A DNA stretch of 35,809 nt from a virus. Lineage: Duplodnaviria > Caudoviricetes. Shown piece by piece: positions 5,856-35,809 of this stretch. The notes beneath the pieces were generated by a model, which was not told where the DNA came from, ran no database searches, and saw only the letters and a list, made by a program, of their open reading frames with translations. The number at the start of each line of letters is the position of its first letter. The first letter of the stretch is position 1. Location: positions 1 through 35,809 of IMG/VR virus record IMGVR_UViG_3300044448_000545; one strand, written 5' to 3'. Made by a program: the position numbers and the translations under genes.

Positions 5856-7412
5856 ATGTCAGACGCTATAGTTAAAAACCTTAACTTTGGTAAGGAAGCC
5901 CGAACCAATGTATTTAAAGGTATTGATAAATTGACACAAGCTGTTAGCTCCACACTCGGGGCTAGCGGCAAATGTGTTATACTGGAAGATAACACCGGTC
6001 AGCCAGTAATTACAAAAGACGGTGTAACAGTTGCAAACTCTATTATACTTAGAGACCCAGTAGAAAATATGGGTGCTACGCTTTTAAAGGAAGCTGCTAG
6101 AAAAACCGTCAAAGAAGCTGGCGATGGAACAACAACGGCTACGGTACTAGCGCACTCAATCTTAACAGAGGCTTACAAAGTACTAGACAAAGAAGGTTCT
6201 AGAAAAATGAAGAACGGTATAACGTCCGCTGTCGATAAGGTTATAAAACACCTTGACAAAAACTCTGTTAAAGTTTCTGGGAATATGATAGATCAAGTAG
6301 CAACAATATCTACAAACAATGACTGTGAGCTAGGCCAGATTATAGCTAATGCTTTCCGCGGTGTAGATGAAACTGGTATTGTTACAATGGAGAAAACAGT
6401 TGAAAGCAAAACTAAAGTAGATATAGTAGATGGTGTTGAATATGATAAAGGCCTTACAAATATGGCGTTTGTTACTAGTAAATCCTCTAAAACTGCTGAG
6501 CTTGAAAACCCACTGATACTTCTTGTAGAATCACCAATTGAAAGTATTAGAAAAATACAAAGCGTACTGGAGTACGTTATAAAAAATAACAAAGCATTAC
6601 TTATTGTTGCTGACTGCGAGCCTGCTGTTATATCAGCGCTAGCGATGAACAAGAACAAAGGTAATATAAAAGTAAATGTAATCAACTCACCTACGTACGG
6701 TATCAATAAAAAAGATATGTTATCTGATTTAGCCTTGCTTACTGGTGCTACAGTTATAAACGAAGATCTTGGTGATGATGTAGATTTAATCACGCCAGAT
6801 ATGCTAGGTACTTGCATTAAAACAGTTACAACTGAATTAGATACAATATTCCAAGTTAATCGTGATAACGAAGAGGTTGATGCGCTTATCGAAGAAATTA
6901 AAAAAGAATTAGTTAAGTCTACTAACGCAGCTGATATAATCAGATTAGAAAAAAGATTATCAAGACTGTCTGCAAAAGTAGCTGTTGTAAAAGTTGGTGC
7001 AAATTCAGAGATCGAGCTTAAAGAAAAAGCTGACAGGGTTGAAGATGCTATATGTGCTACAAAAGCAGCTATCAAAGAAGGTATAGTAGCAGGCGGTGGT
7101 ATCGCGCTTTTAAACGCGTCAACTGCTGTAAAACCAAAAGATAAAAGCGAAGAAGTTCTTTTAAAAGCCATACAAGCTCCGTTTAAAACTATACTTAAAA
7201 ACGCTGGCATTGAAACGTATGATATGCCTAAGGTAAAAGGCAAAGGATTAGATGTGGTTACAGGAAATATGGTAAGTATGATTAAGTCAGGTATTGTCGA
7301 TCCTTTGCTAGTTACCAAGTCTGCGCTTAGAAACGCGGCGTCAGTAGCTACTACTATTCTTTCAACAGATTGTGTAATTAATAATTTAAGGGTAGATGAA
7401 GGCGATAGGTAA
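5856..7412 (+). CDS. groEL: Phage-encoded chaperonin GroEL (Cpn60)
   Basis: Motifs ITKDGVTVA, AGDGTTTATVLA and RVEDAICATKAAIKEGIVAGGG. 518 aa, with no GGM tail. Confidence 0.97.
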   Translation: MSDAIVKNLNFGKEARTNVFKGIDKLTQAVSSTLGASGKCVILEDNTGQPVITKDGVTVANSIILRDPVENMGATLLKEAARKTVKEAGDGTTTATVLAHSILTEAYKVLDKEGSRKMKNGITSAVDKVIKHLDKNSVKVSGNMIDQVATISTNNDCELGQIIANAFRGVDETGIVTMEKTVESKTKVDIVDGVEYDKGLTNMAFVTSKSSKTAELENPLILLVESPIESIRKIQSVLEYVIKNNKALLIVADCEPAVISALAMNKNKGNIKVNVINSPTYGINKKDMLSDLALLTGATVINEDLGDDVDLITPDMLGTCIKTVTTELDTIFQVNRDNEEVDALIEEIKKELVKSTNAADIIRLEKRLSRLSAKVAVVKVGANSEIELKEKADRVEDAICATKAAIKEGIVAGGGIALLNASTAVKPKDKSEEVLLKAIQAPFKTILKNAGIETYDMPKVKGKGLDVVTGNMVSMIKSGIVDPLLVTKSALRNAASVATTILSTDCVINNLRVDEGDR

Positions 7413-7656
7413 GAACTTAATTATAAAAATACACAAAGAAGCTTCTACTAAAACAAAAGGTGGACTGCTTCTAGCTGATATGCACAGAGAAGATATACGC
7501 TATAGAAAAGCCGATGTATTAAACACTGGAAATGAAGTAGTGGGTGTTAAAGACGGTGATCAGATATATTTTGACCGTCACGCTGGGCATGGTATAGAAA
7601 TAGATAAAGAAAAGTTTCACGTTATAAAACTACAGGACGTTGTTGTAATACTATGA
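7396..7656 (+). CDS. groES: Co-chaperonin GroES (Cpn10)
   Basis: MKAIGKNLII...TKGGLLL...VKDGDQIYF...GIEIDKEKFHVIKLQDVV matches the GroES pattern. Overlaps the groEL end by 17 nt. Confidence 0.9.
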   Translation: MKAIGKNLIIKIHKEASTKTKGGLLLADMHREDIRYRKADVLNTGNEVVGVKDGDQIYFDRHAGHGIEIDKEKFHVIKLQDVVVIL

Positions 7657-8800: not shown

Positions 8801-9156
8801 GATACTTCACTTATGAAGAGTTCGATTCGCCTGACGTGCAGGGTAGCGGGCAGATGATGAGTAAAGATCTTATACTTATACTTGAAAGCGTTAGAGAGCA
8901 ATTAGGCGAACCTGTTATTATAACTTCAGGTTATCGTACTCCAGCGCACAACCAACAGGTAGGTGGGAAACCTAACTCATCTCATTTAAAAGGTCTAGCG
9001 GCTGATATAGCTTGCAAAGACAGTAAATACAGGTTTGAACTTGTAAGAGAATTAATGGAACACGGTATAGACCGTATAGGTATTGGTGATACTTTTATTC
9101 ATATAGATATTGATGATGATAAATCACCTGATGTAATCTGGACATATGGCAACTGA
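8794..9156 (+). CDS. Peptidase M15A-family Zn peptidase (probable endolysin)
   Basis: SGYRTPAHN...GGKPNSSHLKGLAADI...FIHID Zn-ligand motifs. ATG 8794 is preferred over TTG 8785. Confidence 0.9.
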   Translation: MLRYFTYEEFDSPDVQGSGQMMSKDLILILESVREQLGEPVIITSGYRTPAHNQQVGGKPNSSHLKGLAADIACKDSKYRFELVRELMEHGIDRIGIGDTFIHIDIDDDKSPDVIWTYGN

Positions 9157-9415
9157 TAAGAAAACGCTTAAGTGCAACAAACCTCGGCGCACGCCAGATC
9201 ACAAAACTAAATCACATATAGTTAGAGCTTGTTCTGCAGGCAAAGAAAAAATAATACGCTTTGGTCAGCAAGGCGTAACAACAGCGGGTAAACCAAAGAG
9301 TGGTGAGTCTGCAAAGCAAAAAGCACGACGTGCTAGTTTTAAAGCTCGTCACGCAAAGAACATTAAAAAAGGTAAAATGTCCGCCGCCTATTGGGCCGAC
9401 AAAGTAAAATGGTAA
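9146..9415 (+). CDS. Basic conserved phage protein (IRFGQQG...RRASFKARH...SAAYWA type)
   Basis: 89 aa and very basic. Motif pattern recalled from a widespread viral DUF family. Function unknown. Confidence 0.8.
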   Translation: MATDKKTLKCNKPRRTPDHKTKSHIVRACSAGKEKIIRFGQQGVTTAGKPKSGESAKQKARRASFKARHAKNIKKGKMSAAYWADKVKW

Positions 9416-9674: not shown

Positions 9675-9983
9675 ATGCCAAAAGGATATGGATATGGTGG
9701 TGAATCCACTATGAAGAAAAAAGGTGCAGCGCCTAAAATGAAAGGATCAATGATGCATATGGGTCATAGCCCAGCAGAGATGGGTCATTCACCTATGAAG
9801 ATGCAAGGTTCTTGGATGTCAAAGCACTCAAGTTCAGCACTCCATATGGGTCATTCACCTATGAAAATGGAATCTGCCAAACAAGAAAAGAAAAACTTAA
9901 TGCAGGATATGCCTATAGACAAAAGAGCTTCTGCAATGAATATGGGTCATAGCCCAATGAAAGCTTATCACACAAAGAAATAA
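9675..9983 (+). CDS. Met/His-rich low-complexity protein with MGHSP repeats
   Basis: Four MGHSP units begin at 9759, 9780, 9846 and 9942. Confidence 0.75.
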   Translation: MPKGYGYGGESTMKKKGAAPKMKGSMMHMGHSPAEMGHSPMKMQGSWMSKHSSSALHMGHSPMKMESAKQEKKNLMQDMPIDKRASAMNMGHSPMKAYHTKK

Positions 9984-10822: not shown

Positions 10823-11335
10823 ATGGCATATAAAAAAAGCCCCGCTTCTTTCATGAAGCATAAAAGTAATGCTGTAGGGTATATGGCAGAAGGATCAGCG
10901 GCTCACATGCATGGAGATCCAGACACGCCACACACGGATAAAATGTCAACTTTAGCAACAGCTAAATCTAAAGCGGCTAAATTGCGTAGTCAAAAAAAAT
11001 CCGATAGTCTTAGCTATGCTAAAGATCTAGAAAAACAATTTAGAAGCAAAAGAGGGCAGCTTGATGCTGCTGGCGATAGGCAGTTAATGAAAGATGTTAA
11101 AAAACGAGCAACTGAAGTTTTTGATTTTGATATAATAGAACCTACTGAAAAATTTCCAAAAACAGGTGTAAGCGTAAAAGAAGGAACATATTTAGGTTCG
11201 GGATATATTGCAGATGGTAAAGAACGAGGATTTGGTAGTGGTATGACTGTTTCTGAATTAGCTAAAGATAAGCCACGTTCTGGTTTTGAGCAAACAAAAG
11301 CAAAAAAGATTTCTAAATTATTAGGCTTAAATTAA
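10823..11335 (+). CDS. Basic hypothetical protein
   Basis: 170 aa, Lys-rich, with a low-complexity N-terminus. Confidence 0.7.
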   Translation: MAYKKSPASFMKHKSNAVGYMAEGSAAHMHGDPDTPHTDKMSTLATAKSKAAKLRSQKKSDSLSYAKDLEKQFRSKRGQLDAAGDRQLMKDVKKRATEVFDFDIIEPTEKFPKTGVSVKEGTYLGSGYIADGKERGFGSGMTVSELAKDKPRSGFEQTKAKKISKLLGLN

Positions 11336-12365: not shown

Positions 12366-12593
12366 ATGGATTCTGTTATAAGAAAAATCAGCATTGGTTC
12401 TGATTATAAAAATGATGCTATGCACTACTCTGTGGGCCAACAAGTTTATGGTGGCCACGAGATTGCATATATTTTATTTGATGGTCAAGATAGTTCTTAT
12501 AATATTCATATAAAGAAAAACAACGAGGTATTGCCATGGAAGAAGTTTAATTCTAACATGGCTATATCTGTTGAGTATGATTTAGAATATTAA
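12366..12593 (+). CDS. Conserved hypothetical protein
   Basis: 75 aa (IRKISIGSDYKNDAMHYSVGQ...WKKFN...VEYDLEY). TAATG coupling to the next gene. Confidence 0.8.
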   Translation: MDSVIRKISIGSDYKNDAMHYSVGQQVYGGHEIAYILFDGQDSSYNIHIKKNNEVLPWKKFNSNMAISVEYDLEY

Positions 12594-13198
12594 TGAAAAG
12601 CGTATACGATTTTATTATAAAACCTATTGGTAAGGTTTATGATAATTCTATAGATGTAGATGGCAAAGAGCTTTTGCTAAACACTAGTATTGAAAAACAT
12701 AAGTTTGTAAATAACAAAGCTATTGTTATTTCAACGCCACTTGCTTTTGATACGCCTATAGAAGAGGGTGATGAAATTATAGTTCACCATAATATCTTTA
12801 GAAGGTATTATAATATAAAAGGTAAAGAGGTTAATAGTAGTAAATACTTTAAAGAAGATCTTTACTTTTGTCAAGTAGATCAAATATATTTATACAAAAA
12901 AATATACAAATGGTATGCGTTTGCTGATAGATGCTTTGCTATGCCACTTGAAAATAATAACGATCTAGAGCTCGATAAAGAGCAAAAGCTTATTGGTATA
13001 CTAAAGTATGGTAATAAGTCCTTAGAAGCTAAAGGAATAAACGAGGGAGATACTGTAGGCTTTACACCTAATAGTGAGTTTGAGTTTATTGTAAATGACC
13101 AGCGGCTTTATTGTATGAAATCAAATGATATTGTAATTAAGTATGAGCACCAAGAAAACCAAGTTGAATATAATCCAGGCTGGGCAAAGAGCAGTTGA
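12593..13198 (+). CDS. Tandem GroES-fold protein (second, divergent co-chaperonin-like)
   Basis: Two GroES-like halves: DFIIKP...IEEGDEIIV and DRCFAMP...INEGDTVGF...EFIVNDQRLYCMKSNDI. Confidence 0.65.
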   Translation: MKSVYDFIIKPIGKVYDNSIDVDGKELLLNTSIEKHKFVNNKAIVISTPLAFDTPIEEGDEIIVHHNIFRRYYNIKGKEVNSSKYFKEDLYFCQVDQIYLYKKIYKWYAFADRCFAMPLENNNDLELDKEQKLIGILKYGNKSLEAKGINEGDTVGFTPNSEFEFIVNDQRLYCMKSNDIVIKYEHQENQVEYNPGWAKSS

Positions 13199-13415
13199 GG
13201 AATTAATTAAGGTAGCTAAAGAACCTATTGTAGATTCAGATGATGACATCTCGGCTGATCGTTTAAAGAACGCGGCTGCAACAAAAAAGTTAGCTATATT
13301 CGATGCGTTTGAAATACTTAACCGCATTGAAGAAGAAAAAAACATGCTTGAAGATAAATCAAGTAATAGTAAACAAAAATCCTTTCAGGGTTTTGCAGAA
13401 GGTAGATCTAAGTAA
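13143..13415 (+). CDS. Putative terminase small subunit/packaging accessory protein
   Basis: 90-aa helical protein, TAATG-coupled to TerL. Assignment is positional. Confidence 0.5.
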   Translation: MSTKKTKLNIIQAGQRAVEELIKVAKEPIVDSDDDISADRLKNAAATKKLAIFDAFEILNRIEEEKNMLEDKSSNSKQKSFQGFAEGRSK

Positions 13416-15619
13416 TGCACGGCCAAAACTTATTTACTGTACTTACAGATCACGTAAAACCTCACGTGCTTAAAAGAAATAACAAAAGCAAAAAGTGGGA
13501 GTATGGCTACAACAAAGAACACGACATAGTCGTTATAAGTAAGACAGGTCAAATAGGTGATATATACGAAATACAAAACCTTAAAATAGCATTACCACCT
13601 TTTAAAGGTAAATTAAATAAGGATAAAGACAAATGGTCTAGAGAAGAATATCCTAAAGAATTAAATAAAATAAAAAGTGTATTTGAGTGGAATAAATACC
13701 CGGAGCACTTTAAAGAAAGATGGTATGAGTATATTGACGAAGAGTTTAAGCGTCGTGATGAAGGTCACTGGTTCAATAACAAAGGTGTTGCTACTTATCT
13801 TACTGGCACTCATTACATGTACTTGCAGTGGAGCAAGATTGATGTTGGGGCAGCAGACTTTAGGGAGTCAAACAGATTATTTTTTATATTCTGGGAAGCT
13901 TGCAAAGCAGACACAAGATGCTACGGCATGTGCTACCTTAAAAACAGAAGGTCTGGTTTTAGCTTCATGGCATCAGGGGAAATTGTTAACCTTGCAACAA
14001 TATCAAGCGATGCAAGATTCGGTATCTTATCAAAATCAGGGGCTGATGCTAAAAAAATGTTTACCGACAAAGTAGTACCAATATCAATTAACTATCCTTT
14101 CTTTTTTAAACCAATACAAGACGGTATGGATCGTCCTAAAACAGAGCTTGCCTACAGAGTACCAGCTTCAAAGCTAACTCGTAGAAAGCTAGATCAAGGC
14201 GAAACACCTGAAGAAGTTGTAGGGCTTGACACTACTATCGACTGGAAAAATACAGGGGATAACAGCTATGATGGTGAAAAACTAAAACTGCTCGTGCACG
14301 ATGAATCAGGTAAATGGGAAAGACCTGATAACATATTAAACAACTGGAGGGTTACAAAAACAACTCTTAGATTAGGTAGCAGAGTTGTAGGTAAATGCAT
14401 GATGGGTTCTACAAGTAACTCTCTTGATAAAGGAGGTGAAAACTTTAAAAAATTATACAATGCATCAGATGCCACTAAAAGAAACCGCAATGGACAGACT
14501 AGCTCAGGACTATATTCTTTGTTCATACCTATGGAGTGGAATTACGAAGGATTCATTGATACTTATGGACACCCTGTCTTTGATACGCCGGCAAAATCAG
14601 TTGAAGGTGCAGACGGGTTACAAATTGAAGTAGGTGTTATAAATCACTGGCAAAACGAAGTTGATGGTTTAAAAGGTGATCAGGATAGTTTAAACGAATA
14701 CTATCGTCAGTTTCCCAGAACTGAGCAGCATGCTTTTAGAGATGAAACAAAAGAGTCTTTATTTAATCTAACTAAGATATACGAGCAAATAGATTACAAC
14801 GAAGAGTCTGATAATTTTAAACTAATAACAAGAGGTAACTTTGTTTGGCAAGGTGGTATCAAAGATACCATTGTTAATTTTATGCCAAATAAAAACGGTA
14901 GGTTTTTAGTTTCTTGGGTTCCACCTATAGAATTACAAAATCGTGTAATAATAAAGAATGGAGTTAAATATCCCGGCAACGAGCATTGCGGTGCTTTCGG
15001 GTGTGACTCATACGATATATCAGGTACAGTAGATAATAGAGGATCTAACGGAGCTCTTCACGGGCTTACAAAATTCTCTATGGAAAACGTACCGGCTAAT
15101 ATGTTTTTTTTAGAATATATATCAAGACCTCCAACGGCTGAGATATTCTTTGAAGATGTACTAATGGCATTACACTTTTACGGTATGCCAATATTAGCAG
15201 AAAATAACAAACCAAGACTTTTATATTATTTAAAACGTAGAGGTTACAGAGCTTTCTCAATGAACAGACCAGATAAATTAAAACTGTCTGTAGCAGAAAG
15301 AGAGATAGGTGGAATACCTAACTCATCAGAAGATATTAAACAAGCTCATGCCGCTGCTATAGAATCTTATATAGAAGATTATGTTGGGCTTAAAGAGACT
15401 ATGTATGGTGATATGTATTTTCAAGAGACTTTAGAAGACTGGTCTAAATTTAATATAAACAATAGAACAAAGCACGATGCTTCGATAAGCTCTGGCTTAG
15501 CTATTATGGCTTGTAATAAAAATAGGTATACACCTATAAACGTAGTTAAAAAAAATGTTGTTCCTTTGGGCTTCAAGAAGTTTGATAACCAAGGTAGTAT
15601 TTCAAAAATAATAAAATAG
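13415..15619 (+). CDS. terL: Terminase large subunit
   Basis: Walker A variant LKNRRSGFS, Walker B LLVHDESGK, coupling motif GSTSN, and RNase H-like nuclease motifs FGCDSYD, LAENN and HDASI. Confidence 0.93.
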   Translation: MHGQNLFTVLTDHVKPHVLKRNNKSKKWEYGYNKEHDIVVISKTGQIGDIYEIQNLKIALPPFKGKLNKDKDKWSREEYPKELNKIKSVFEWNKYPEHFKERWYEYIDEEFKRRDEGHWFNNKGVATYLTGTHYMYLQWSKIDVGAADFRESNRLFFIFWEACKADTRCYGMCYLKNRRSGFSFMASGEIVNLATISSDARFGILSKSGADAKKMFTDKVVPISINYPFFFKPIQDGMDRPKTELAYRVPASKLTRRKLDQGETPEEVVGLDTTIDWKNTGDNSYDGEKLKLLVHDESGKWERPDNILNNWRVTKTTLRLGSRVVGKCMMGSTSNSLDKGGENFKKLYNASDATKRNRNGQTSSGLYSLFIPMEWNYEGFIDTYGHPVFDTPAKSVEGADGLQIEVGVINHWQNEVDGLKGDQDSLNEYYRQFPRTEQHAFRDETKESLFNLTKIYEQIDYNEESDNFKLITRGNFVWQGGIKDTIVNFMPNKNGRFLVSWVPPIELQNRVIIKNGVKYPGNEHCGAFGCDSYDISGTVDNRGSNGALHGLTKFSMENVPANMFFLEYISRPPTAEIFFEDVLMALHFYGMPILAENNKPRLLYYLKRRGYRAFSMNRPDKLKLSVAEREIGGIPNSSEDIKQAHAAAIESYIEDYVGLKETMYGDMYFQETLEDWSKFNINNRTKHDASISSGLAIMACNKNRYTPINVVKKNVVPLGFKKFDNQGSISKIIK

Positions 15620-18037
15620 ATGATTTATACTAATTCTAGTAGCACTTTTCCAAGTCAGGTAGTACCAGACGCAGAGAAAAAGACTTATGAATATGGTTTA
15701 GCCGTAGCGAAAGCTGTGGAAGACGAATGGTTTAGAGGAGACAGAGGAACTGGAAACGGTGGAAGATTTGGAAACAACTGGTCTAGATTTAATGATCTAA
15801 GACTTTATGCTCGCGGAGAGCAAAGTGTAGCTAAATACAAAGATGAATTATCTATAAATGGTGATTTGTCTTATCTTAATTTAGACTGGAAACCAGTAGC
15901 TGTATTATCTAAATTTGTAGATATTGTAGTTAACGGTATGACAGATAAAGGTTATGAAATAAAATCTTTTGCTTCAGATCCGTATGCTATAAAACAAAGA
16001 ACTGACTTTGCTTTTAATGCTTTGCGTGATATAGAAAATAAAGAAATGATTGATCAGCTTAACGCTGCTACTGGTCAAAACTTTTACGCATCGCCTGATC
16101 CTCAAGAATTACCTGTAAATAAAGAAGAACTAGATCTTTATCTTCAATTAAATTATAAGCAAGCTATAGAAATAGCTGAAGAAGAAGTTATTAGTAACGT
16201 ATTTAATTATAATAAATATGATGAAACTAAAAAACGATTAGCTTACGATTTAACAGTGTTAGGTATTAGTTGTGTTAAAACTAATTTTAATCTAGCTAAT
16301 GGTGTGACTGTTGATTATGTAGATCCAGCTAATTTAGTTTATTCTTATACCGACGATCCTAACTTTGAAGATATATACTACGTAGGGGAAGTTAAAAGTT
16401 TATCTCTTGAAGAAATTAAAAAACAATTTCCTTACTTAACTCAATCAGAGTTAAAAGAAATACAAGAATATTCAGGCAATAATAATTATAGAAGTAATTT
16501 TTATAATTATGATTACGACAGAAACTTAATACAAGTATTATATTTTGAATACAAAACTTATCAAAATCAAGTATTTAAAATAAAACAAACAGATCAAGGT
16601 CTTGAAAAAGCTCTTGAAAAAGATGATTCATTTAATCCGCCTGAAACTGACAACTTTAATAAAGTACATAGAGCTATAGAAGTTTTATACAGTGGCGCTA
16701 AAATTCTTGGTCAAGAAAAAATGCTTAAATGGGAACTAGCTAAAAACATGACTAGACCTTATAGCGATCAAACTAAAGTTGAAATGAATTATGCTATATC
16801 TGCTCCTCGTATGTATAAGGGCAGAATAGAATCATTAGTAAGTAAGTGTATTGGTTTCGCCGATATGATACAGCTTACGCATTTAAAATTACAGCAAGTA
16901 CTATCACGTATGGTACCTGATGGTGTTTATGTTGACGTAGATGGATTAGCTGAAGTTGATCTTGGTAATGGTACTAATTATAACCCTGCAGAGGCTTTGA
17001 ACATGTACTTCCAAACTGGTAGTATTGTTGGTAGAAGTTTAACGCAAGATGGTGATCCTAACAGAGGTAAAGTACCAATACAAGAATTACAAACATCGTC
17101 TGGAATAAGCAAAATACAAGCGCTTATACAAACGTATCAGTATTACCTGCAAATGATTAGAGACGTGACCGGGCTTAACGAAGCTAGAGATGGTAGTCAA
17201 CCAGCTAAAGATTCATTAGTTGGTTTACAAAAACTAGCCGCAGCTGCATCTAATACAGCTACTAAGCATATACTTCAGTCTTTAATGTATTTAACAATAC
17301 GCTCAGCTGAAAATATAAGTCTGCGTGTTGCTGATATGCTAGAGTTTCCACTACTTAAGCAGTCTTTAATGAGCTCTATAAATCAATTTAATGTATCTAC
17401 ATTATCTGAAGTAGATAAGCTTAATATGCACGAATTTGGTATATTTTTAGAATTAGAACCAGATGAAGAAGAGCAAGCAGGTTTAGAACGCAATATACAA
17501 ATAGCATTACAAGGAGGCCAAATTGGTTTAGAAGATGCTATAGATATAAGAGAAATAAAAAACTTAAAGCTAGCTAATCAGTTTTTAAAATATAGACAAA
17601 AAATAAAAGCAGAGCAAGCTCAACAAGCTCAGTTGGCCAATATACAAGCTCAAGCAAATGCTAATGCTGAATCTGCAGAAAGAGCAGCGTTAGCTGAAAC
17701 TCAAAAACAACAAGTTATTAACGAGCAGAAAGTTCAACTAGAACAAGCTAAGTCGCAGTTTGAAATACAACGCATGCAAACTGAAGCTCAAATTAAACGC
17801 GGTTTAATGAGTGAAGAATTTAACTTTAACATGCAGTTGGCAAAAGCTAGAGCTGATGTTGAAAAAGCTAAAGAAAGTGAAATAGAAGATCGTAAAGACG
17901 AGCGTGCTAGAATTATAGGTACGCAACAATCAGAAATGATTTCACAGCGTCAAAACGATGAACTACCTAAAAACTTTGAGTCATCTGGATTTGACTCACT
18001 AGGAGGATTTGGACTTGAAGAGTTTGAGCCTCGTTGA
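15620..18037 (+). CDS. Portal protein
   Basis: 805 aa after TerL. YLQMIRDVTGLNEARDG motif and a long C-terminal Gln/Ala coiled coil (barrel). Confidence 0.88.
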   Translation: MIYTNSSSTFPSQVVPDAEKKTYEYGLAVAKAVEDEWFRGDRGTGNGGRFGNNWSRFNDLRLYARGEQSVAKYKDELSINGDLSYLNLDWKPVAVLSKFVDIVVNGMTDKGYEIKSFASDPYAIKQRTDFAFNALRDIENKEMIDQLNAATGQNFYASPDPQELPVNKEELDLYLQLNYKQAIEIAEEEVISNVFNYNKYDETKKRLAYDLTVLGISCVKTNFNLANGVTVDYVDPANLVYSYTDDPNFEDIYYVGEVKSLSLEEIKKQFPYLTQSELKEIQEYSGNNNYRSNFYNYDYDRNLIQVLYFEYKTYQNQVFKIKQTDQGLEKALEKDDSFNPPETDNFNKVHRAIEVLYSGAKILGQEKMLKWELAKNMTRPYSDQTKVEMNYAISAPRMYKGRIESLVSKCIGFADMIQLTHLKLQQVLSRMVPDGVYVDVDGLAEVDLGNGTNYNPAEALNMYFQTGSIVGRSLTQDGDPNRGKVPIQELQTSSGISKIQALIQTYQYYLQMIRDVTGLNEARDGSQPAKDSLVGLQKLAAAASNTATKHILQSLMYLTIRSAENISLRVADMLEFPLLKQSLMSSINQFNVSTLSEVDKLNMHEFGIFLELEPDEEEQAGLERNIQIALQGGQIGLEDAIDIREIKNLKLANQFLKYRQKIKAEQAQQAQLANIQAQANANAESAERAALAETQKQQVINEQKVQLEQAKSQFEIQRMQTEAQIKRGLMSEEFNFNMQLAKARADVEKAKESEIEDRKDERARIIGTQQSEMISQRQNDELPKNFESSGFDSLGGFGLEEFEPR

Positions 18038-18070
18038 AAATAAAATCCTTTAATTTTATACTATTATATT

Positions 18071-19264
18071 ATGTCAGAAGAAGTAAAACAAGAAGGAGAG
18101 TTTAAAATAAAAACCCCTTCAAAGCCTAAAAATTTAGGTAATAACACAAGTGAACCTATTAAAGTTAACATGAAAGAACCTTTAGTAGAAGTAGAATCAA
18201 ACGTTACCAAAGTAGTGGTACCAAACGAAGATAAAGAAGATGCCGTTCAAACACAAGAGACAAATGATAGCAATGCTATTATCGAAGAGCCCAAAGACAG
18301 TGGCGACAGCAAAGAAGTGGTTGAAGAAGTACGGACCTCCAGTGAAGAAGTAGAATCTCCTTTAACTGTAATTGAAGATACTGAAGAAGAACAAGATCAA
18401 CCTGAAGTAACTAAAGAAGTAGAGCAAGCTGTACAAGAGCAAAGAGTTTTACCTGAAAATATTGAAAAGCTAGTTTCTTTTATGGAAGAGACTGGCGGTA
18501 CTGTAGAAGACTATGTTAGGCTTAATGCAGATTATACCAATGTTGATAGTAATACTTTAATTAAAGAATATTATAAACAAACTAAACCACATTTAGATTC
18601 AGAAGATGTAAGTCTTTTATTAGAAGACTTTGATTACGATGAAGATATAGATGAACCAAAAGATATACGCAAAAAGAAAATTGCGTTTAAAGAGGAGGCT
18701 GCAAAAGCTAAAAACTTTTTAGAAGATCTTAAGAATAAATATTACGACGAAATCAAGTTGAGACCCGGAGTAACTCAAGATCAACAAAAAGCAACAGACT
18801 TTTTCAACCGATACAACGAAGAGCAAGAAGCTGTGCAAGCAAAGCATAAGGACTTTATAAGCCGTACTAAAAATTTATTAAATAATGATTTCGAAGGTTT
18901 CGATTTTAAAGTTAGTGATAAAAAATTTAGGTATGGTATTAAAAATCCAACACAGGTGGCTGATGCACAATCTGATATTACAAACTTCATTAAGACGTTC
19001 TTAAATGATAAAAATGAAATAACAGATACTAAAGGTTACCACAAAGCTTTATACGCAGCGCGAAATGCTGATACCATAGCACAACATTTTTACGAGCAAG
19101 GCAAAGCTGATGCTATTAAAGATGTTATGGCTAAATCTAAAAACATAAGTAATGAACCTAGGCAAACTGCCTCTGGTGATGTATTTGTTAATGGGTTAAA
19201 GGTAAAAGCAATTAGCGGTCTTGATTCTTCAAAATTAAAAATCAAAACTAAAAAATTTAACTAA
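18071..19264 (+). CDS. Capsid scaffolding protein
   Basis: Acidic, disordered N-terminal third and helical C-terminus. Lies between portal and MCP. Confidence 0.75.
   Translation: MSEEVKQEGEFKIKTPSKPKNLGNNTSEPIKVNMKEPLVEVESNVTKVVVPNEDKEDAVQTQETNDSNAIIEEPKDSGDSKEVVEEVRTSSEEVESPLTVIEDTEEEQDQPEVTKEVEQAVQEQRVLPENIEKLVSFMEETGGTVEDYVRLNADYTNVDSNTLIKEYYKQTKPHLDSEDVSLLLEDFDYDEDIDEPKDIRKKKIAFKEEAAKAKNFLEDLKNKYYDEIKLRPGVTQDQQKATDFFNRYNEEQEAVQAKHKDFISRTKNLLNNDFEGFDFKVSDKKFRYGIKNPTQVADAQSDITNFIKTFLNDKNEITDTKGYHKALYAARNADTIAQHFYEQGKADAIKDVMAKSKNISNEPRQTASGDVFVNGLKVKAISGLDSSKLKIKTKKFN
18240..18353 (+). CDS. Nested +1-frame basic 37-aa protein MPFKHKRQMIAMLLSKSPKTVATAKKWLKKYGPPVKK
   Basis: ATG 18240 with A-rich context, TAG 18351-53. 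Resembles small MPFKS..Q...AK[KR]W phage proteins. Confidence 0.55.
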   Translation: MPFKHKRQMIAMLLSKSPKTVATAKKWLKKYGPPVKK

Positions 19265-19278
19265 CTAAATAATAAATT

Positions 19279-20736
19279 ATGGCTTTAACTCCACAATTTG
19301 GTAGTTTAGTCCCAACTTCAACTCAACAGTTGTTGCCGACAAACTACCTACAATTTAACACAGGTGCTGGCGAAGATTTCGCACAACAGTTTTTACCTGA
19401 GATTTACGAACAAGAAGTAGAGCGTTACGGAAACCGTACACTATCTGGATTCTTGCGTATGGTTGGCGCAGAGATGCCAATGACATCTGACCAAGTTATT
19501 TGGTCTGAACAAAACCGTTTACACATTGCTTATGATAGCTGTACGCTGCCTGGTGGTGGTGTTATACGAGTAGCCCCTGCGGCTGGCGCAGCTACAGTTC
19601 AAAATGTTATTTCTGTAAATGATACAGTAGTAATTTTAGACACTGTAACTGGTGCTGAGCAAAAAGGTATCGTTACAGCTTCTGTACAAGCAGTTGTTGG
19701 TGGTGCTAATGGTGACATTACTGTTACTACTTGGGCAGGCGGTGTTGGTGGTGCTGGACTAACTTCTGGTAGCATCAAAGTATTTGTATATGGTTCTGCT
19801 TATGCAAAAGGAACTAGCATGCTTTCTGGTGGTACTGTTGCTGCTGGAACTCAACCTAGAATTTCTGTTACTCCACAGTTAACTCAATTTTCTAACTCTC
19901 CAATCATTATTAGAGACCAATATGTTATTAGTGGTTCTGATATGGCACAAATTGGTTGGGTGGAAGTTGCTACTGAAGACGGTACTTCTGGATATCTATG
20001 GTATTTAAAAGCTGAATCTGAAACTCGTTTACGTTTTGAAGATTACTTAGAAACAGCTTTAATTGAAGGCGAACTAAGTACTATTGGCGCGGGTGCTGGT
20101 GTTGGTTCAGGTCTTGTTCCTGGTACTCAAGGTTTATTCGCTGCTATTCAAGCTCGTGGTAATGTAGAAGTAGGATTTACTGCTGCTGCTGGACTAGATG
20201 AATTTGATGCGATTCTTAAAAACCTAGATACTCAAGGAGCTATTGAAGAAAACATGTTGTTCTTACAACGTCAAACTTCATTAGACTTTGACGATATGCT
20301 ATCTGCAATTTCAGCTGGTGGTGCTGGCGGTACTGCGTTTGGTCTTTTCGAAAATTCTGAAGAAATGGCATTGAACTTAGGATTCTCTGGATTCCGTAGA
20401 GGTTCTTACGATTTTTATAAGACTGATTGGAAATATCTAAATGACGCTTCTACTCGTGGTGGTGTTACTGGAATCAACTCTATCGAAGGTGTATTAATTC
20501 CTGCTGGAACAAGTACAGTTTACGATCAGATTCTAGGAAGCAACATCCGTCGTCCGTTCTTACACGTACGATATAGAGCTTCACAATCTGATGATCGTCG
20601 TATGAAGTCTTGGCTAACTGGTTCTGCTGGTGGTGCTTTTACCTCAACTCTTGATGCAATGGAAGTAAACTTCCTATCTGAAAGATGTTTGGTAACTCAA
20701 GCGGCTAACAACTTTGTATTATTCAAAGGAGTGTAA
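19279..20736 (+). CDS. Major capsid protein
   Basis: 485 aa after the scaffold, with highly biased codon usage, followed by a terminator. FSGFRRGSYDFYKTDWKYLND and ANNFVLF motifs. Confidence 0.88.
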   Translation: MALTPQFGSLVPTSTQQLLPTNYLQFNTGAGEDFAQQFLPEIYEQEVERYGNRTLSGFLRMVGAEMPMTSDQVIWSEQNRLHIAYDSCTLPGGGVIRVAPAAGAATVQNVISVNDTVVILDTVTGAEQKGIVTASVQAVVGGANGDITVTTWAGGVGGAGLTSGSIKVFVYGSAYAKGTSMLSGGTVAAGTQPRISVTPQLTQFSNSPIIIRDQYVISGSDMAQIGWVEVATEDGTSGYLWYLKAESETRLRFEDYLETALIEGELSTIGAGAGVGSGLVPGTQGLFAAIQARGNVEVGFTAAAGLDEFDAILKNLDTQGAIEENMLFLQRQTSLDFDDMLSAISAGGAGGTAFGLFENSEEMALNLGFSGFRRGSYDFYKTDWKYLNDASTRGGVTGINSIEGVLIPAGTSTVYDQILGSNIRRPFLHVRYRASQSDDRRMKSWLTGSAGGAFTSTLDAMEVNFLSERCLVTQAANNFVLFKGV

Positions 20737-28354: not shown

Positions 28355-30013
28355 ATGGGTGCAATAATCGAAGTAGATTACTACAATACTTTTATTTTAA
28401 AAAAGACTATAACATCAAGCGCGTTAGATTGGAACGGTTCGTTTGGTGTTCCGCCTGGTGTTGACGGTGGTTATCCTGTAATATCCGCGGCTACTACTCA
28501 AGCAGATAGTTGGGCTATAGAAGAATCACGTATTAGAGGTGGTTATAACAATACAACCGTAGAGTTAGGACCAAGAGCTTTTATAGTAGAAGACGAACCT
28601 AATTCTTCTATAAGATTTAATAGTCTTATATATTCTGGTATTTATAATTCTACTACAGGTGTAAATGATACTAACGTTTTTTCTGTAGGTGATGATATAA
28701 CTAAATCAGCTGACCCAGCAAACGGTAGTATACAAAAGCTATATGCTGAAGATACAAATCTTATTATATTCCAAGAAAACAAAGTTAGTAGAGCTCTTAT
28801 AGATAAAGACGCTATATATACCGCTGAAGGTAGTACATCTATATCAAATATAAACACTACTATAGGTACTATACAACCTTTTACAGGTAATTTTGGTATT
28901 AGCCAAAACCCAGAAAGCTTTGCTGTGTATGGGTATAGAAAATATTTTACAGACAAAGACAGAAATGCTGTAATGAGATTGTCAAGAGATGGTCTAACTG
29001 AAATATCTAATTACGGTATGATAGATTATTTTAGAGATCAATTTGATAATTTAGATCAAACAAATGATTTACCTGGTAAAGCTTTAGGTAGTTGGGATAT
29101 ATACAACAAGCAATATGTATTATCTTTACAACAAAACCCAAATGCTAACAACCCTACGTTTAACACACTTAGTTTTGATGAGCAAGTTTTAGGGTGGCCT
29201 AGCTTTTTTACATACGAACCTGATCAGGCTATTAGTATTCAAAGCGATTTTTATACTTTTAAAGATGGATCTTTATATAAACATTACGTAGATAATTTTA
29301 ATGCTGCTACAGGTCTGTATGATAGAAATACTTTTTACGGCGTGTCAAGTAATTCTTCTATAACGTTTGTGTTTAATCCTAAGGTAAGCATGTCAAAAGT
29401 ATTTAAGACTGTAAACTACGAAGGATCTAGCGGTTGGAAAATTAGTGAATATAAAGCTAGCAGATCTTTTGATTTAAACGATACTGCTAACGTAGTTTTA
29501 AGTAACGCTGCGGGTCTTTATGAAGAGCAAACTATACAAGAGGTTATTATAACAAACGCAGGCGCGGCGTATGGCTTAGCAAACAACGTTAGTGTTGCTA
29601 CAACTGGAGCTGGTACAGGTTTCTCTTGCAACATAACGCAGGTGTCTGGCGCTGGCGCTATACAATCGGTTGTTATAAATCAAGTTGGTACTGGGTATAA
29701 AAACGGTGAAAACCTAACGGTTTCTGGCGGTAACGGCGCAGCTGTGTTGCAAATTAATAGTGTTAATACTTCAGTTTATAACGCTGGTTTCTACTTAAAA
29801 GAAGGTAAGTACTACGCTAGCATAGTTAATTCTAGTCCAGCTACAGCCGGTGAGGTTGTGTTTGGTGATGATATGACTGGTGTTAAAGGTTATTACGCTG
29901 TTGTTAAAATAGAAACAGGAAAAGTAAATGTTAATCAAAATATTGTAGACGCTAAAACACAGCCAATGGAATTATTCGCGGTTTCATCTGAGTATGTTGA
30001 ATCAGCTTATTAA
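28355..30013 (+). CDS. Tail nozzle/stabilization protein, C-terminal part
   Basis: GSIQKL...LIIFQENKVS...FGISQNPESFA...YFTDK...GWPSFF...KVFKTVNYEG...KEGKYYA beta-propeller-like motifs. Confidence 0.75.
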   Translation: MGAIIEVDYYNTFILKKTITSSALDWNGSFGVPPGVDGGYPVISAATTQADSWAIEESRIRGGYNNTTVELGPRAFIVEDEPNSSIRFNSLIYSGIYNSTTGVNDTNVFSVGDDITKSADPANGSIQKLYAEDTNLIIFQENKVSRALIDKDAIYTAEGSTSISNINTTIGTIQPFTGNFGISQNPESFAVYGYRKYFTDKDRNAVMRLSRDGLTEISNYGMIDYFRDQFDNLDQTNDLPGKALGSWDIYNKQYVLSLQQNPNANNPTFNTLSFDEQVLGWPSFFTYEPDQAISIQSDFYTFKDGSLYKHYVDNFNAATGLYDRNTFYGVSSNSSITFVFNPKVSMSKVFKTVNYEGSSGWKISEYKASRSFDLNDTANVVLSNAAGLYEEQTIQEVIITNAGAAYGLANNVSVATTGAGTGFSCNITQVSGAGAIQSVVINQVGTGYKNGENLTVSGGNGAAVLQINSVNTSVYNAGFYLKEGKYYASIVNSSPATAGEVVFGDDMTGVKGYYAVVKIETGKVNVNQNIVDAKTQPMELFAVSSEYVESAY

Positions 30014-32383: not shown

Positions 32384-35300
32384 ATGAACGAAGAGCAAAT
32401 TGCAGAATTAAAATCTTTGGTTGATGAGTTAACAACTCAAGGTTTATCTACAGAGCAAATACAAGCTAGTGTTGATCAACGTAAAGCTGAGTTTGCTAAT
32501 GCTGTAGAAGTTACAGACGAAATACAAGAGACTGTAACTGAGGGAAAGACAAGCGATGTTGCAACAGTGGATGCGGCTGTGACATCGGAACCGGACACAG
32601 CATCCGAGAGTACGGAATCAAAGCCGGACGATATTTTATCGGGATTAGAAGAAATTAAAGACGTACGCGAAATAGATAAACGTATTGATAAAATAACATC
32701 TACAAAAGCAACTAAATTTTTTGAAGCAGGAGAAATAAGTCCTTTAGATTCTCCAAAAAGAATAGCTCAATATAAAGAGTTAATCAATAGAAGAAATAAT
32801 ATAATAGGTGATGCTTATAAACTAGGTCAAACTCAGACTTACCAGCAAAAAGACTTTGATCCTATGAGTCCTAGTAAAAAAGTTATTGAAAGAGAAGGAG
32901 CTCCAGAAGGAGGAGCTAAACTAGCTTACGTTCCTTTTACAGTAGATGGCGAGGTAGTTGGTACAACAATGGAACCGCTTGCATTTGAAGAGGTGATAGT
33001 AACTGCTCAACAATATAAAGAGCGCGAAAGACAAATACAAAGTGAAGCTTATATTAATTTTCTAGAACAATCTGGGTTATCAACAGAACCACTATCCCGT
33101 GAAGAGTTTGAAGCTGAAAAAGAAAAAGAAGGTGATATAACAGAAATAAAAACTACGCCTTACAGAGGCTTAGATTTACTTCAATCTTTTGAAAACATAG
33201 GAGCTTCTTTATCTGGGCTTCAACAAACAGCACAAGAAAAAGAAAATTTTAGAAATCAATATGAAGATTATCTTTCTTTTATGAAAGACAAAAAAGTTGA
33301 TGTAAAGCGTGAAGTGCCGGGTTTTTTTTCTAGTAGATTTGCTGATGTTTCCAATTTATTAACACAAGTAGGTGGGACAGATGATAGAGCTCTTTTAAAT
33401 CTAGCTTATATTACTAATTCTATATCTTCTGATACTTATCGAAACGTATTTGGCGTAGAGTTAGGCGATAGATTAAAAAAAGAAGCAGTTAAAAGTCTTA
33501 GTAATATAGATAATAAAATGAATTATTTAAATTCATTAACGCTAGATACTCCTACTTTTTTAGATATTGCACCAAAAGAAAGTTTAACTAGTAATGCTTT
33601 AACGGGTTTGTCAGCTGGGCTAACAGCTTTAAGTAGTTTTGCAGCAACCGCTGCTACAGCTATACCTACAAGTGGTACGGCTATTTTTAGTGACATGGCT
33701 GCTAATAATATTAAATCTTTTAATGATGCAAAAGCAAGAAGCAAAGGTATTACAGTTGAGGAATTAGCTTTAAGAGGCGAAACAGAAGTTGTAACACCTA
33801 CTGGTTTAGCCGTTATAGGTGGTTTTTTAGAAAAAGCTGGTTTGAAAGGTGTTCAAAGAAAAATATCTGCTATGCCTCCTGGTGCTATGCAAGCTGTTTT
33901 TAATTATTTTAATTCTGGAAATAGAGAAGGTATTACAGAATATGCACAGGGTTTATTAGAAGCTTATAATTTAGCTTTAGGTGAAGGTAAATCAATAGAT
34001 GAAGCTATTGATATAGTAATCAAAGAAATGACTTCTCCAGAAAGCCTTAATAGATATTTATCGGGTTTTGCTGGTGGAGCAGGTGGTTTAGGATCTGGAA
34101 GAATAATGAAAGCTATAGGCGCTACAAGAACACCATCAGAAAACAAAAGAGTATCTAGCCTTATAAATAAATTAAACGAACTAGAAAATAGTAAGTATAG
34201 AAAAAATTTAAATGCTGATGATATTGCACAAATAAACACAGCGCAAGAGACTATAAGATTTGATTTAAGAGATATAGTACTAAATGAAGTTGATTTAGTT
34301 GGATCTTTAACAGAAGCTCAAATTCAACAAGTAGATATAGCCTCTGATTATTTAACTTCTTCTACTAGTAGAATAAACGAAATAGAAGCTAGTGATAAAT
34401 ATAGCGAGCAAGACAAAAAAAATATTATAGCTAGTATAAATCAAAAAAGACAAATAGCTAGTGATGTAATATATGACATACGTAATGAAGCGGAAAAATT
34501 AGAAGCACAAGTATTTACTATAAAAGATTTATCTAAGTTTGTTAAAGGTGTTAAAGTAGAGGAAGCTAAAGATGATGCTGAAGCTTTAAAATTTGTTGAT
34601 GAAAATAATTTAGAAATAAAAGCTTCTACGGAGCAAGGCTATATACTACAAAATCCTGAAACAGGAGAGCAGACAATAGTTATAAATAAAGAGACCGCTC
34701 AAAACCAAAAAGCTGTAAACGTAGCCGCTCATGAATTTTTACACGCTATATTATATTCTACAATAAAAAATAATCCTAAGGCAGCTACAAATCTTGGTAA
34801 ATCTCTAATGGCTGAGTTAAATAAAATAGACATAGACCAAATAGAAGATAGTGACTTTAAAAAACGTATGAAGCAATATGCTGAAAAACCTATTGACCAA
34901 CAAATGGAAGAGGCTATTACGTTGTTTTCTGATGCTTTAGTTACAGGGGATATAAATTTTAAAGAAAATATAGCTACTAGAATAGGTGATAAATTTCGTA
35001 GACTTGCTCAAAAGTTTGGTGTTAAAATAAAATTTAACAATGGTAAAGATGTATATAACTTTGTAAAAGATTATAACAAAAGTATTGAAAAAGGTGAATT
35101 ATCTATAGCTCAAGTACGGGCAGCTGCTGAAGGTGTTGAAGGTGAATTAGTTACACCAGTAACAGAACAGCGAGCTGACGAACAAATAATTAAAGAATCA
35201 AGATCTGAAGAAGCTTCTAATCGTGTTCAAGAAATATACGATCAACAAGGCGAAGCTGGTGCTTTTGATATTATAGAACAGTTTAAACCTATTACAAGTA

Positions 35301-35809
35301 GAATAGTAGAGCGTAGAAGTGAAGCACCTGGCTTTGATCGTCAATTACTTACAGATGAAATAGAAACTGGTCAGCGAGGTATTATAGATCTTATTAAAGA
35401 ATATGATCCAGAATCAGGTGTACCGTTAGCAGCTTATATAAATAAGTTTTTACCAGCTCGAGCTATTGAAGCATCGAAAAGAGTTCTTGGTGAAGAGTTT
35501 ACAGAAGATGTCACTGAAGCAAGAGGTGTTGTGGCTGAAGAGGTTGTGACTGAAACCGCTATTAAACCAGAGGCAAAAACCATTGATCCGTTCAGGATTA
35601 TGCCTAATGTAAGAGAAGCTGCGGTAACAGAAGTACAAGAAAGTATTGCAGATAAAGACGTAGACGTTACAGAGGTTACATATAAGGAGCTTAAAGACGT
35701 TGCGCCATACCAAACAGTGGCAGACTTTTTTAACATACCTGTAAGCCGAATAAAAAATCCTAAAGATAATTTGCGTAAGTTAGATGACGTGGCAAATATA
35801 CAGCGTTGG
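32384..35809 (+). CDS. Giant multidomain internal virion/ejection protein, 3'-truncated (not in ORF track)
   Basis: ATG 32384 (MNEEQIAELKSLV...). The frame appears open for 1142 codons to the window end. Contains Gly/Ala hydrophobic segments, EGITEYAQ, HEFLH (34730-34744) and a sigma-r2-like segment (35270-35482). Confidence 0.85.
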   Translation, partial: MNEEQIAELKSLVDELTTQGLSTEQIQASVDQRKAEFANAVEVTDEIQETVTEGKTSDVATVDAAVTSEPDTASESTESKPDDILSGLEEIKDVREIDKRIDKITSTKATKFFEAGEISPLDSPKRIAQYKELINRRNNIIGDAYKLGQTQTYQQKDFDPMSPSKKVIEREGAPEGGAKLAYVPFTVDGEVVGTTMEPLAFEEVIVTAQQYKERERQIQSEAYINFLEQSGLSTEPLSREEFEAEKEKEGDITEIKTTPYRGLDLLQSFENIGASLSGLQQTAQEKENFRNQYEDYLSFMKDKKVDVKREVPGFFSSRFADVSNLLTQVGGTDDRALLNLAYITNSISSDTYRNVFGVELGDRLKKEAVKSLSNIDNKMNYLNSLTLDTPTFLDIAPKESLTSNALTGLSAGLTALSSFAATAATAIPTSGTAIFSDMAANNIKSFNDAKARSKGITVEELALRGETEVVTPTGLAVIGGFLEKAGLKGVQRKISAMPPGAMQAVFNYFNSGNREGITEYAQGLLEAYNLALGEGKSIDEAIDIVIKEMTSPESLNRYLSGFAGGAGGLGSGRIMKAIGATRTPSENKRVSSLINKLNELENSKYRKNLNADDIAQINTAQETIRFDLRDIVLNEVDLVGSLTEAQIQQVDIASDYLTSSTSRINEIEASDKYSEQDKKNIIASINQKRQIASDVIYDIRNEAEKLEAQVFTIKDLSKFVKGVKVEEAKDDAEALKFVDENNLEIKASTEQGYILQNPETGEQTIVINKETAQNQKAVNVAAHEFLHAILYSTIKNNPKAATNLGKSLMAELNKIDIDQIEDSDFKKRMKQYAEKPIDQQMEEAITLFSDALVTGDINFKENIATRIGDKFRRLAQKFGVKIKFNNGKDVYNFVKDYNKSIEKGELSIAQVRAAAEGVEGELVTPVTEQRADEQIIKESRSEEASNRVQEIYDQQGEAGAFDIIEQFKPITSRIVERRSEAPGFDRQLLTDEIETGQRGIIDLIKEYDPESGVPLAAYINKFLPARAIEASKRVLGEEFTEDVTEARGVVAEEVVTETAIKPEAKTIDPFRIMPNVREAAVTEVQESIADKDVDVTEVTYKELKDVAPYQTVADFFNIPVSRIKNPKDNLRKLDDVANIQRW
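32542..32605 (+). other. Predicted -1 programmed ribosomal frameshift signal (G GGA AAG + 5-nt spacer + H-type pseudoknot)
   Basis: The heptamer 32542-48 is in the correct phase. Stem 1: CGATGTTGC(32554-62)/GTGACATCG(32579-87). Stem 2: GGATGC(32569-74)/GCATCC(32600-05). Confidence 0.65.

Follow-up and report, generated by a model that had tools for sequence, protein, structure and literature searches.

We analysed a virus record of 35.8 kb, here called the window (the whole stretch of 35,809 nucleotides), whose genes include those for a terminase, a portal protein, GroEL and GroES, a protein of 397 amino acids (aa) and a likely capsid protein (Table 1). The virion structural protein listed after the 397-aa gene is, judged by its size and position, likely the major capsid protein. 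The phage GroEL gene (5856-7412, PF00118) is followed directly by a small GroES-like gene (7396-7656, identified by eye), a GroES-family gene of 201 aa (12593-13198) precedes the terminase gene, and an antisense ORF of 341 codons within groEL (6293-7318, minus strand) is probably a codon-bias shadow. Also present are a cluster of small basic genes (9146-9415, 9675-9983 and 10823-11335, with net charges of +21, +11 and +12; the product of 9675-9983 has repeated MGHSP units), a tail fibre with an S74 chaperone domain (2162-5098), and a crAssvirus muzzle C-terminal domain (28355-30013, PF25729).

Table 1. Features of the window that bear on the nested gene; the host gene is the longer ORF that contains it.
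Feature	Positions	Strand	Remarks
Terminase large subunit	13415..15619	+	phrog_6681, E = 1.7 × 10−161
Portal protein, directly 5′ of the host gene	15620..18037	+	phrog_6547, E = 2 × 10−137
Host gene, 397 aa	18071..19264	+	likely scaffold, by position and predicted architecture
Candidate internal translation-initiation region	18219..18239	+	A-rich, no Shine-Dalgarno motif, weakly folded
Host codons 57-94, overlying the nested gene	18239..18352	+	acidic, predicted disordered
Nested gene, 37 aa, MPFKS-type small phage protein family	18240..18353	+	+1 frame of the host ORF; ATG at 18240, TAG ending at 18353
Virion structural protein	19279..20736	+	phrog_13704, E = 8.8 × 10−86
Start of giant gene, running off the contig	32384..35809	+	1,142 aa seen

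Family scans with the 397-aa host protein gave no family match. Its gene lies between the portal and capsid genes, and its predicted model combines an acidic, disordered part (residues 1-124, with pLDDT < 50 over residues 20-94) with long helices (residues 129-357), as is characteristic of prohead scaffolds; judged from gene position and predicted architecture, the protein is likely a scaffold. The best structural matches of the model are uncharacterised proteins of Cellulophaga phage phi18:3 and other Bacteroidota phages, named scaffolds match it only at E > 0.6, and a fold search against the PDB gave no match, which is not proof of a new fold. The closest cultured relatives of the gene are found in Elemovirus, a genus of Flavobacterium phages (35% identity, 68 of the 70 matching records), where the gene order around it is the same as in the window and where the homologue in elemo phages is annotated as 'structural protein'. 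From these relatives, the shared gene order and the representation of the window DNA in seawater metagenomes, we infer that the bacterial host belongs to the Flavobacteriia.

Within the acidic, disordered part of the host protein, the +1 frame of the same strand contains a second ORF with its own start and stop, lying wholly inside the longer one. A first-pass annotation of this DNA had proposed a hidden basic gene at this place, and the peptide it gave is identical to the translation obtained here; the A residues at positions −3 and −6 of the ATG are likewise present. That annotation had also remarked on an excess of host codons ending in C or G, which is borne out by the count: 14 of the 38 host codons over the nested gene have such an ending (GC3 = 0.37; the value is 0.20 outside the nested stretch of the host gene and 0.21 across 11 other genes); these bases are the second positions of nested Pro, Ala, Ser, Thr, Trp, Gly and Arg codons. 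The 37-aa peptide contains 11 K/R and no D/E (pI 10.96), has neither Cys nor a signal sequence, and is predicted to form a helical hairpin (helices at residues 6-13 and 18-31; AlphaFold pLDDT 83.5).

The region upstream of the nested ATG resembles the window's own gene starts, which are similarly A-rich and without a Shine-Dalgarno motif, and it is predicted to be weakly folded (−2.4 kcal/mol, compared with a median of −6.6 kcal/mol). The start-site score of the nested ATG is moderate (1.2, compared with a median of 2.3 for true starts) and 25 of the 416 internal ATGs score at least as high (25 of the 283 that lie in +1 frames). This region is likely to act as an internal translation-initiation region, with support that is only moderate because Glu and Asp codons supply many of the A residues. 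Four runs, all in the form of assembled contigs, were compared with the window; RNA-library contigs of relatives cover the nested site, one spanning positions 17900-18692 with 57 differing letters (X16, record 17) and one spanning 18110-18296 (X15, record 11); being assembled contigs, they carry no information on strand, level or translation, and DNA may have been present. When the host protein was synonymously recoded with phage codon usage (20,000 trials), a +1 ORF of at least 37 codons starting with ATG appeared somewhere in 39% of the trials and at the exact nested site in 3%. In the window alone, the nested ORF is not beyond chance; it is its conservation in relatives that places it beyond chance.

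Searching with the scaffold gave 80 loci. At the same place as in the window, 72 of them have a +1 ORF of 36-53 aa that begins with MP[FL]; another 7 are full-length scaffolds from which it is missing, and 1 further locus is incomplete. In 27 distinct coding sequences of the window subtype, the third-position entropy of the host frame is 0.21 in codons 57-93, compared with 0.78-1.08 elsewhere, and synonymous variation is 0.036, compared with 0.22-0.32 elsewhere. In the same 27 sequences, the +1 frame has 0 stops in 971 codons of the nested stretch, compared with 0.07-0.14 per codon elsewhere. Conservation of the ATG and frame and suppressed synonymous variation in scaffold homologues were two of the checks that the first-pass annotation had named, and both came out in favour of the nested gene. 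In a synonymous-variation scan, the portal and capsid genes have no comparable dip (lowest values 0.28-0.29, compared with 0.14 in the nested stretch). A spanning tree was built from 43 distinct regions of scaffold-selected loci of the window subtype (49 loci including the window; the edges are not fully independent), and on it 182 changes were peptide-silent and 21 were scaffold-silent (expected share 0.46); other subtypes were excluded from this tree because of indels. In a larger set that includes peptide-selected loci, 426 changes were peptide-silent and 52 were scaffold-silent. These substitution patterns indicate purifying selection on the nested frame, which in the overlapping stretch protects the peptide rather than the scaffold, and we consider the nested ORF to be almost certainly a real gene. 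The high nucleotide conservation of the nested stretch could also be explained by an RNA or DNA signal, with no protein made and the open frame a side effect; however, the variation is concentrated at the third positions of the nested frame, indels among the nested-peptide subtypes preserve that frame, and annotated free-standing genes encode the same peptide, so that a signal of this kind has next to no probability.

The peptide belongs to a large family. At E ≤ 0.001, a profile of 24 nested peptides matched 2,249 clusters in a set of 1.84 billion proteins, and the module stands at the start of the protein in 132 of 150 among the matches listed. Members are either short basic proteins (median net charge +11 for 58 proteins) or the N-terminus of long low-complexity proteins. 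The family pattern consists of an N-terminal MP[FY]xSxxQ, an A..W...Y hairpin and a basic tail; the window peptide follows it, with its subtype having His instead of Ser5 and additional residues between the helices. A profile of free-standing members matches the window ORF at E = 1 × 10−4, and intermediates connect the subtypes. The first-pass annotation had noted a likeness to small free-standing phage proteins of the form MPFKS..Q..A..W and had asked for stand-alone homologues. Such homologues exist in Streptomyces, cyanobacterial and other phages: the copies of phage 023Pt_psg01 (URG13095.1) and of the Streptomyces phage FlowerPower (gp48, which has an Ala/Lys-repeat tail) are annotated, and those in the GenBank records of P-RSP2, S-CBS2 and C75C1 (L164:6001, L249:4001 and L166:5001) are unannotated. 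The carriers span phages of Bacteroidota, Actinobacteria and Cyanobacteria, and across them the N-terminal MP is invariant and the aromatic residues are conserved. Matches in Mycobacterium and Pseudomonas phages are candidates only, and a match in Gordonia phage Eyre was rejected because it has no start codon.

With free-standing members as query, the 80 best viral loci comprised 33 nested in this scaffold family and 47 that were not, and with the nested profile 79 of 80 loci were scaffold-nested and 1 was unparsed. A single-pattern search of prokaryote genomes, one per species, gave 45 loci (44 in metagenome bins and 1 in a Prochlorococcus record), of which 8 were scaffold-nested, 3 nested in giant ORFs, 33 free and 1 judged to be chance; this distribution fits a phage-borne gene. 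Locus L403 had been flagged as nested and was counted as chance (71% GC, with a dissimilar host frame). The nearest library family to the MPFKS-type peptides is PHROG 1375, of unknown function, which is matched by 40 of 50 free-standing members (best E = 4 × 10−7) and 4 of 24 nested ones (best E = 6 × 10−4), with the match beginning at profile position 17, and which may be a related family. The window peptide had no match to PHROG 1375 at E ≤ 1, nor to any other PHROG.

Searches of Pfam, NCBIfam and the PDB found no relative of the peptide family that would give it a function. The Pfam matches of the window peptide (Ponericin, E = 0.029, and DUF1391, E = 0.035) were taken as chance, NCBIfam gave nothing beyond 3 single weak matches for 50 free-standing members, and a PDB sequence search with the peptides returned only look-alikes among beta-propeller repeats. 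Fold searches with the peptide model found no match (best E of 2 with Foldseek, best Z of 3.9 with VIA), which again does not prove a new fold. In the ESM Atlas only hypothetical proteins were found, below 0.9, and DUF3008, present in 14% of the members of one row, is a weak lead. A tblastn search of cultured phages gave 3 chance matches for the window peptide and none for the L017 peptide, and full-text literature searches, made with topic words and not with the peptide letters, found no paper on the MPFKS-type peptide or its nesting.

The nested gene also occurs inside a second, unrelated host gene. In elemo, no copy is nested in the scaffold, and the gene for gp18, a 'structural protein' of about 3,700 aa, contains an unannotated 42-aa family member in its +1 frame at codon 1221 (L247:7001-7129; NC_055853.1, 52379-52507), which 68 elemo records match. 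Manatee Spring phage (MW202828) likewise has a family member nested in a giant gene and a scaffold without a copy. Among 80 pattern matches with full flanks, 70 were in the scaffold, 6 in a giant ORF, and 4 were free or cut. Comparison of the giant-gene copies of elemo and locus L316 shows that the peptides are identical at 39 of 41 residues and the host frame at 31 of 41, with 1, 1 and 10 differences at the first, second and third nested codon positions, a pattern which indicates that selection favours the peptide in the giant-gene host as well. Seven near-complete genomes (five viral contigs, 93-100% complete and picked as copy-bearing, together with elemo and Manatee Spring) contain exactly one match each, in the scaffold in 4 and in the giant gene in 3, although a divergent second copy could escape detection. 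In the window, the 1,142-aa part of the giant gene has no copy. In genome G004 the giant gene is split into two ORFs of 2,014 and 844 codons with overlapping ends (L380:8782-17324).

The subtypes of the nested peptide are scattered over the scaffold tree (144 cores), and one Cys-bearing subtype is found in both scaffold and giant-gene hosts, both of which point to exchange of the cassette. Marine scaffolds without the nested gene are placed among its bearers on the tree; three that were aligned are 23 residues shorter at the site, and a fourth is rearranged. Genome G001 (about 49% complete, so that half of it is unseen) has a copy neither in its scaffold nor in its complete giant gene of 2,805 aa, which suggests that the nested gene may be dispensable.

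The first-pass annotation had called the ORF an overprinted gene. A real and conserved nested gene is indeed present, but its birth from the spare frame of the scaffold does not agree with the free-standing homologues or with those in other hosts. A de novo overprint is expected to be the younger of the two frames and to have no homologues outside the overlap, which is not what is found here. On that reading, the free-standing copies would be escapees or look-alikes; acidic Glu repeats do yield Lys-rich +1 frames for free, and the overlap is old within this phage group. However, members close to the consensus stand alone in unrelated phages, where stops interrupt the other frames; a single subtype sits inside two unrelated host genes; and the two most distant scaffolds, those of elemo and Manatee Spring, lack the nested gene. 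These distributions already largely refute de novo overprinting, which we regard as very unlikely, and they make it highly probable that the nested gene was captured and not born in place. Since copies of the small gene are also found free of the overlap and within a second, unrelated host, it is most likely the host-frame text that is the by-product.

Under capture, a pre-existing small gene would have been taken up by the scaffold as an in-frame cassette. Its Lys codons (AAG and AAA), read one base earlier, would become Glu-rich host text, so that the only effect on the host would be a lengthened acidic linker. A disordered linker of acidic character would tolerate such text, which would have allowed the gene to be absorbed. 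Later, scaffolds would have exchanged the cassette with one another, other lineages would have received it in giant virion genes, and some would have lost it. A broader proposal is that Bacteroidota phages keep this widespread single-copy gene as a mobile cassette that moves among the acidic linkers of unrelated structural genes, which would thus host hidden microproteins, and that the peptide founds an overlooked class of head-internal or ribosome-binding proteins. Such hitchhiking would be possible because basic peptides, read one base back, give a harmless acidic linker. We hold this proposal tentatively, as plausible yet less likely than not; if it is true, the acidic linkers of scaffolds and giant proteins are landing sites for hidden microproteins.

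A different relation between the two frames would be a programmed −1 frameshift, with the nested frame supplying an alternative N-terminus for a shorter scaffold. In locus L201 (3859-5044) the peptide is fused in frame to the C-terminal part of the scaffold, giving 347 aa, and a handful of comparable chimeras exist among database proteins (P0001, P0010 and P0021). However, the L201 junction is confined to one contig in the viral collection and to 1 of 204 scaffold cores; contig indels do occur, as an unrelated frameshift at this place in L317 shows; the position of the nested stop varies (36-53 aa); no conserved slippery heptamer was noticed by eye; and the nested gene is also present in unrelated hosts. 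Frameshifting is therefore scarcely probable.

Embedded genes are known from other phages. In lambda and other phages with two-component spanins, Rz1 is a small +1-frame gene that can lie wholly inside the larger Rz, over a flexible linker; passages of PMC6139136 describe the pair as often missed by annotation, as also occurring overlapped or separated, and as forming one complex, and report no family found to join embedded and separated forms. The nested gene described here is like Rz1 in its complete enclosure, its +1 frame and its position over a linker of the host protein, and unlike it in that peptides of near-identical sequence occur both free-standing and inside two unrelated hosts (compare PMC6139136, in its treatment of Rz/Rz1). 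It has no Cys, signal sequence, membrane anchor or lysis cassette, and its host is a soluble head-module gene between the portal and capsid genes. In phiX174, gene D is the scaffolding gene and gene E encodes the lysis protein, which is usually taken as a de novo overprint. Gene E lies entirely within gene D, as stated in a passage of 10.1101/2020.06.10.143693, and to that extent resembles the small gene encoded within the likely scaffolding gene here. Unlike gene E, the nested gene here is older, widespread, soluble and basic. For E. coli there is a general proposal that genes are remodelled out of frame (PMC8788219).

As to function, we propose that the product is a late, head-associated DNA-binding peptide comparable to the J/VP8 proteins of microviruses, a reading to which we give slightly less than an even chance. 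Ribosomes initiating internally on the late transcript of the head genes would make the peptide, its conserved aromatic and hydrophobic hairpin would dock on a fixed surface, its variable K/R tail would neutralise nucleic acid after the manner of J/VP8, and the basic helical peptide would bind DNA within the phage head. The residues conserved in the family are P2, F3, Q8, A24, W27 and Y31, and the C-terminal tail is basic and variable. All nested hosts with good support are genes of the head module or giant genes of a virion module. Among 31 free-standing loci, 17 have any named neighbour: 11 adjoin a gene with a head, connector or tail name, 6 have only neighbours with non-virion names, and the other 14 have none named. 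Complex prediction for the peptide with the likely capsid protein scored 0.00 in two runs, which speaks neither for nor against. J/VP8 of the Microviridae, as described in PMC11281519, is a K/R-rich protein of about 38 aa with a hydrophobic anchor and a basic DNA-binding part, which lines the capsid interior of ssDNA phages and anchors via a C-terminal aromatic residue. The window peptide is similarly shorter than 40 aa and strongly basic, and unlike J/VP8 it has its conserved part in an N-terminal hairpin, a basic and variable C-terminus, and a tailed dsDNA phage as carrier, with terminase and portal genes. No sequence match was found between J/VP8 and the nested peptide, and J/VP8 would be a functional analogue only.

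Since the family occurs in phages of very different hosts and capsids, a target in the bacterial cell fits as well as DNA does. The peptide might target a conserved cellular machine, for instance the ribosome or RNA polymerase, in the late phase of infection, with the site in a structural gene serving late bulk synthesis. The invariant MP and conserved aromatic residues across phages of three bacterial groups suggest a single target, and small basic peptides with such features are typical ribosome binders. A second basic nested ORF that follows the first in some scaffolds also points in this direction. On the other side, no family that binds ribosomes or polymerase was matched (1 of 50 members against Ribosomal_S17, E = 0.027), the second ORF had no ArfA match in a Pfam scan of 6 members, and the module also opens long low-complexity proteins encoded in virion modules; we consider a host target fairly unlikely. 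Another possible role is that of a head-assembly tag or cofactor for the procapsid, portal or prohead protease, which in the long fusions would act as a leader that brings cargo into the head and is cut off at Gly-Gly. The usual position of the module at the start of the protein agrees with this, GG occurs at positions 30-42 in 29 of 42 proteins longer than 100 aa (6.4 would be expected from the remainder of these sequences), cleavage there would release a peptide of about 35-37 aa, and free-standing copies often adjoin portal, GroES or scaffold genes. However, the GG fusions are not independent, because they are largely one look-alike group, the cleavage is putative, capsid and portal proteins differ greatly across the carrier phages, and the free peptide has no cargo. 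An assembly tag is thus rather improbable, more so than a host target. Several of the long low-complexity proteins that start with the module (P0015, P0023, P0046, P0105 and similar ones) have GG at about 35-37, further GG repeats and a GG.A.LW C-terminus, and are possibly protease-processed virion polyproteins.

In textbook cases, an embedded phage gene either works together with its host gene, as in Rz/Rz1, or is regarded as born in place. Here an apparently older, independent gene lies inside the floppy linkers of two unrelated structural genes, where it dictates the sequence. Because the nested gene sets this sequence, conserved acidic motifs in these scaffolds and giant proteins would be shadows of another gene, which bears on annotation and on the interpretation of conservation. 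The family comprises thousands of clusters. Because elemo and Flavobacterium sp. BAL314 are a cultured pair and elemo has an unannotated nested copy, expression, virion location and function are directly testable.

Further small +1 ORFs were observed in some of these genes. The second basic ORF of some scaffolds is about 39 aa long, has an HRNKKKY motif and is absent from the window; it was seen at L032:3275-3391, L033:3284-3400 and L108:2021-2137 and in L143-L145, L157, L287, L293, L304 and L332, and its only Pfam match is a weak one to DUF7230 (E = 0.009-0.08 in 4 of 6 members). The elemo gp18 gene has a second basic +1 ORF, of 40 aa, at codon 883. A 26-aa +1 ORF at scaffold codon 107 is common to four close relatives (L023, L024, L025 and L031), which may be a chance feature shared through kinship.
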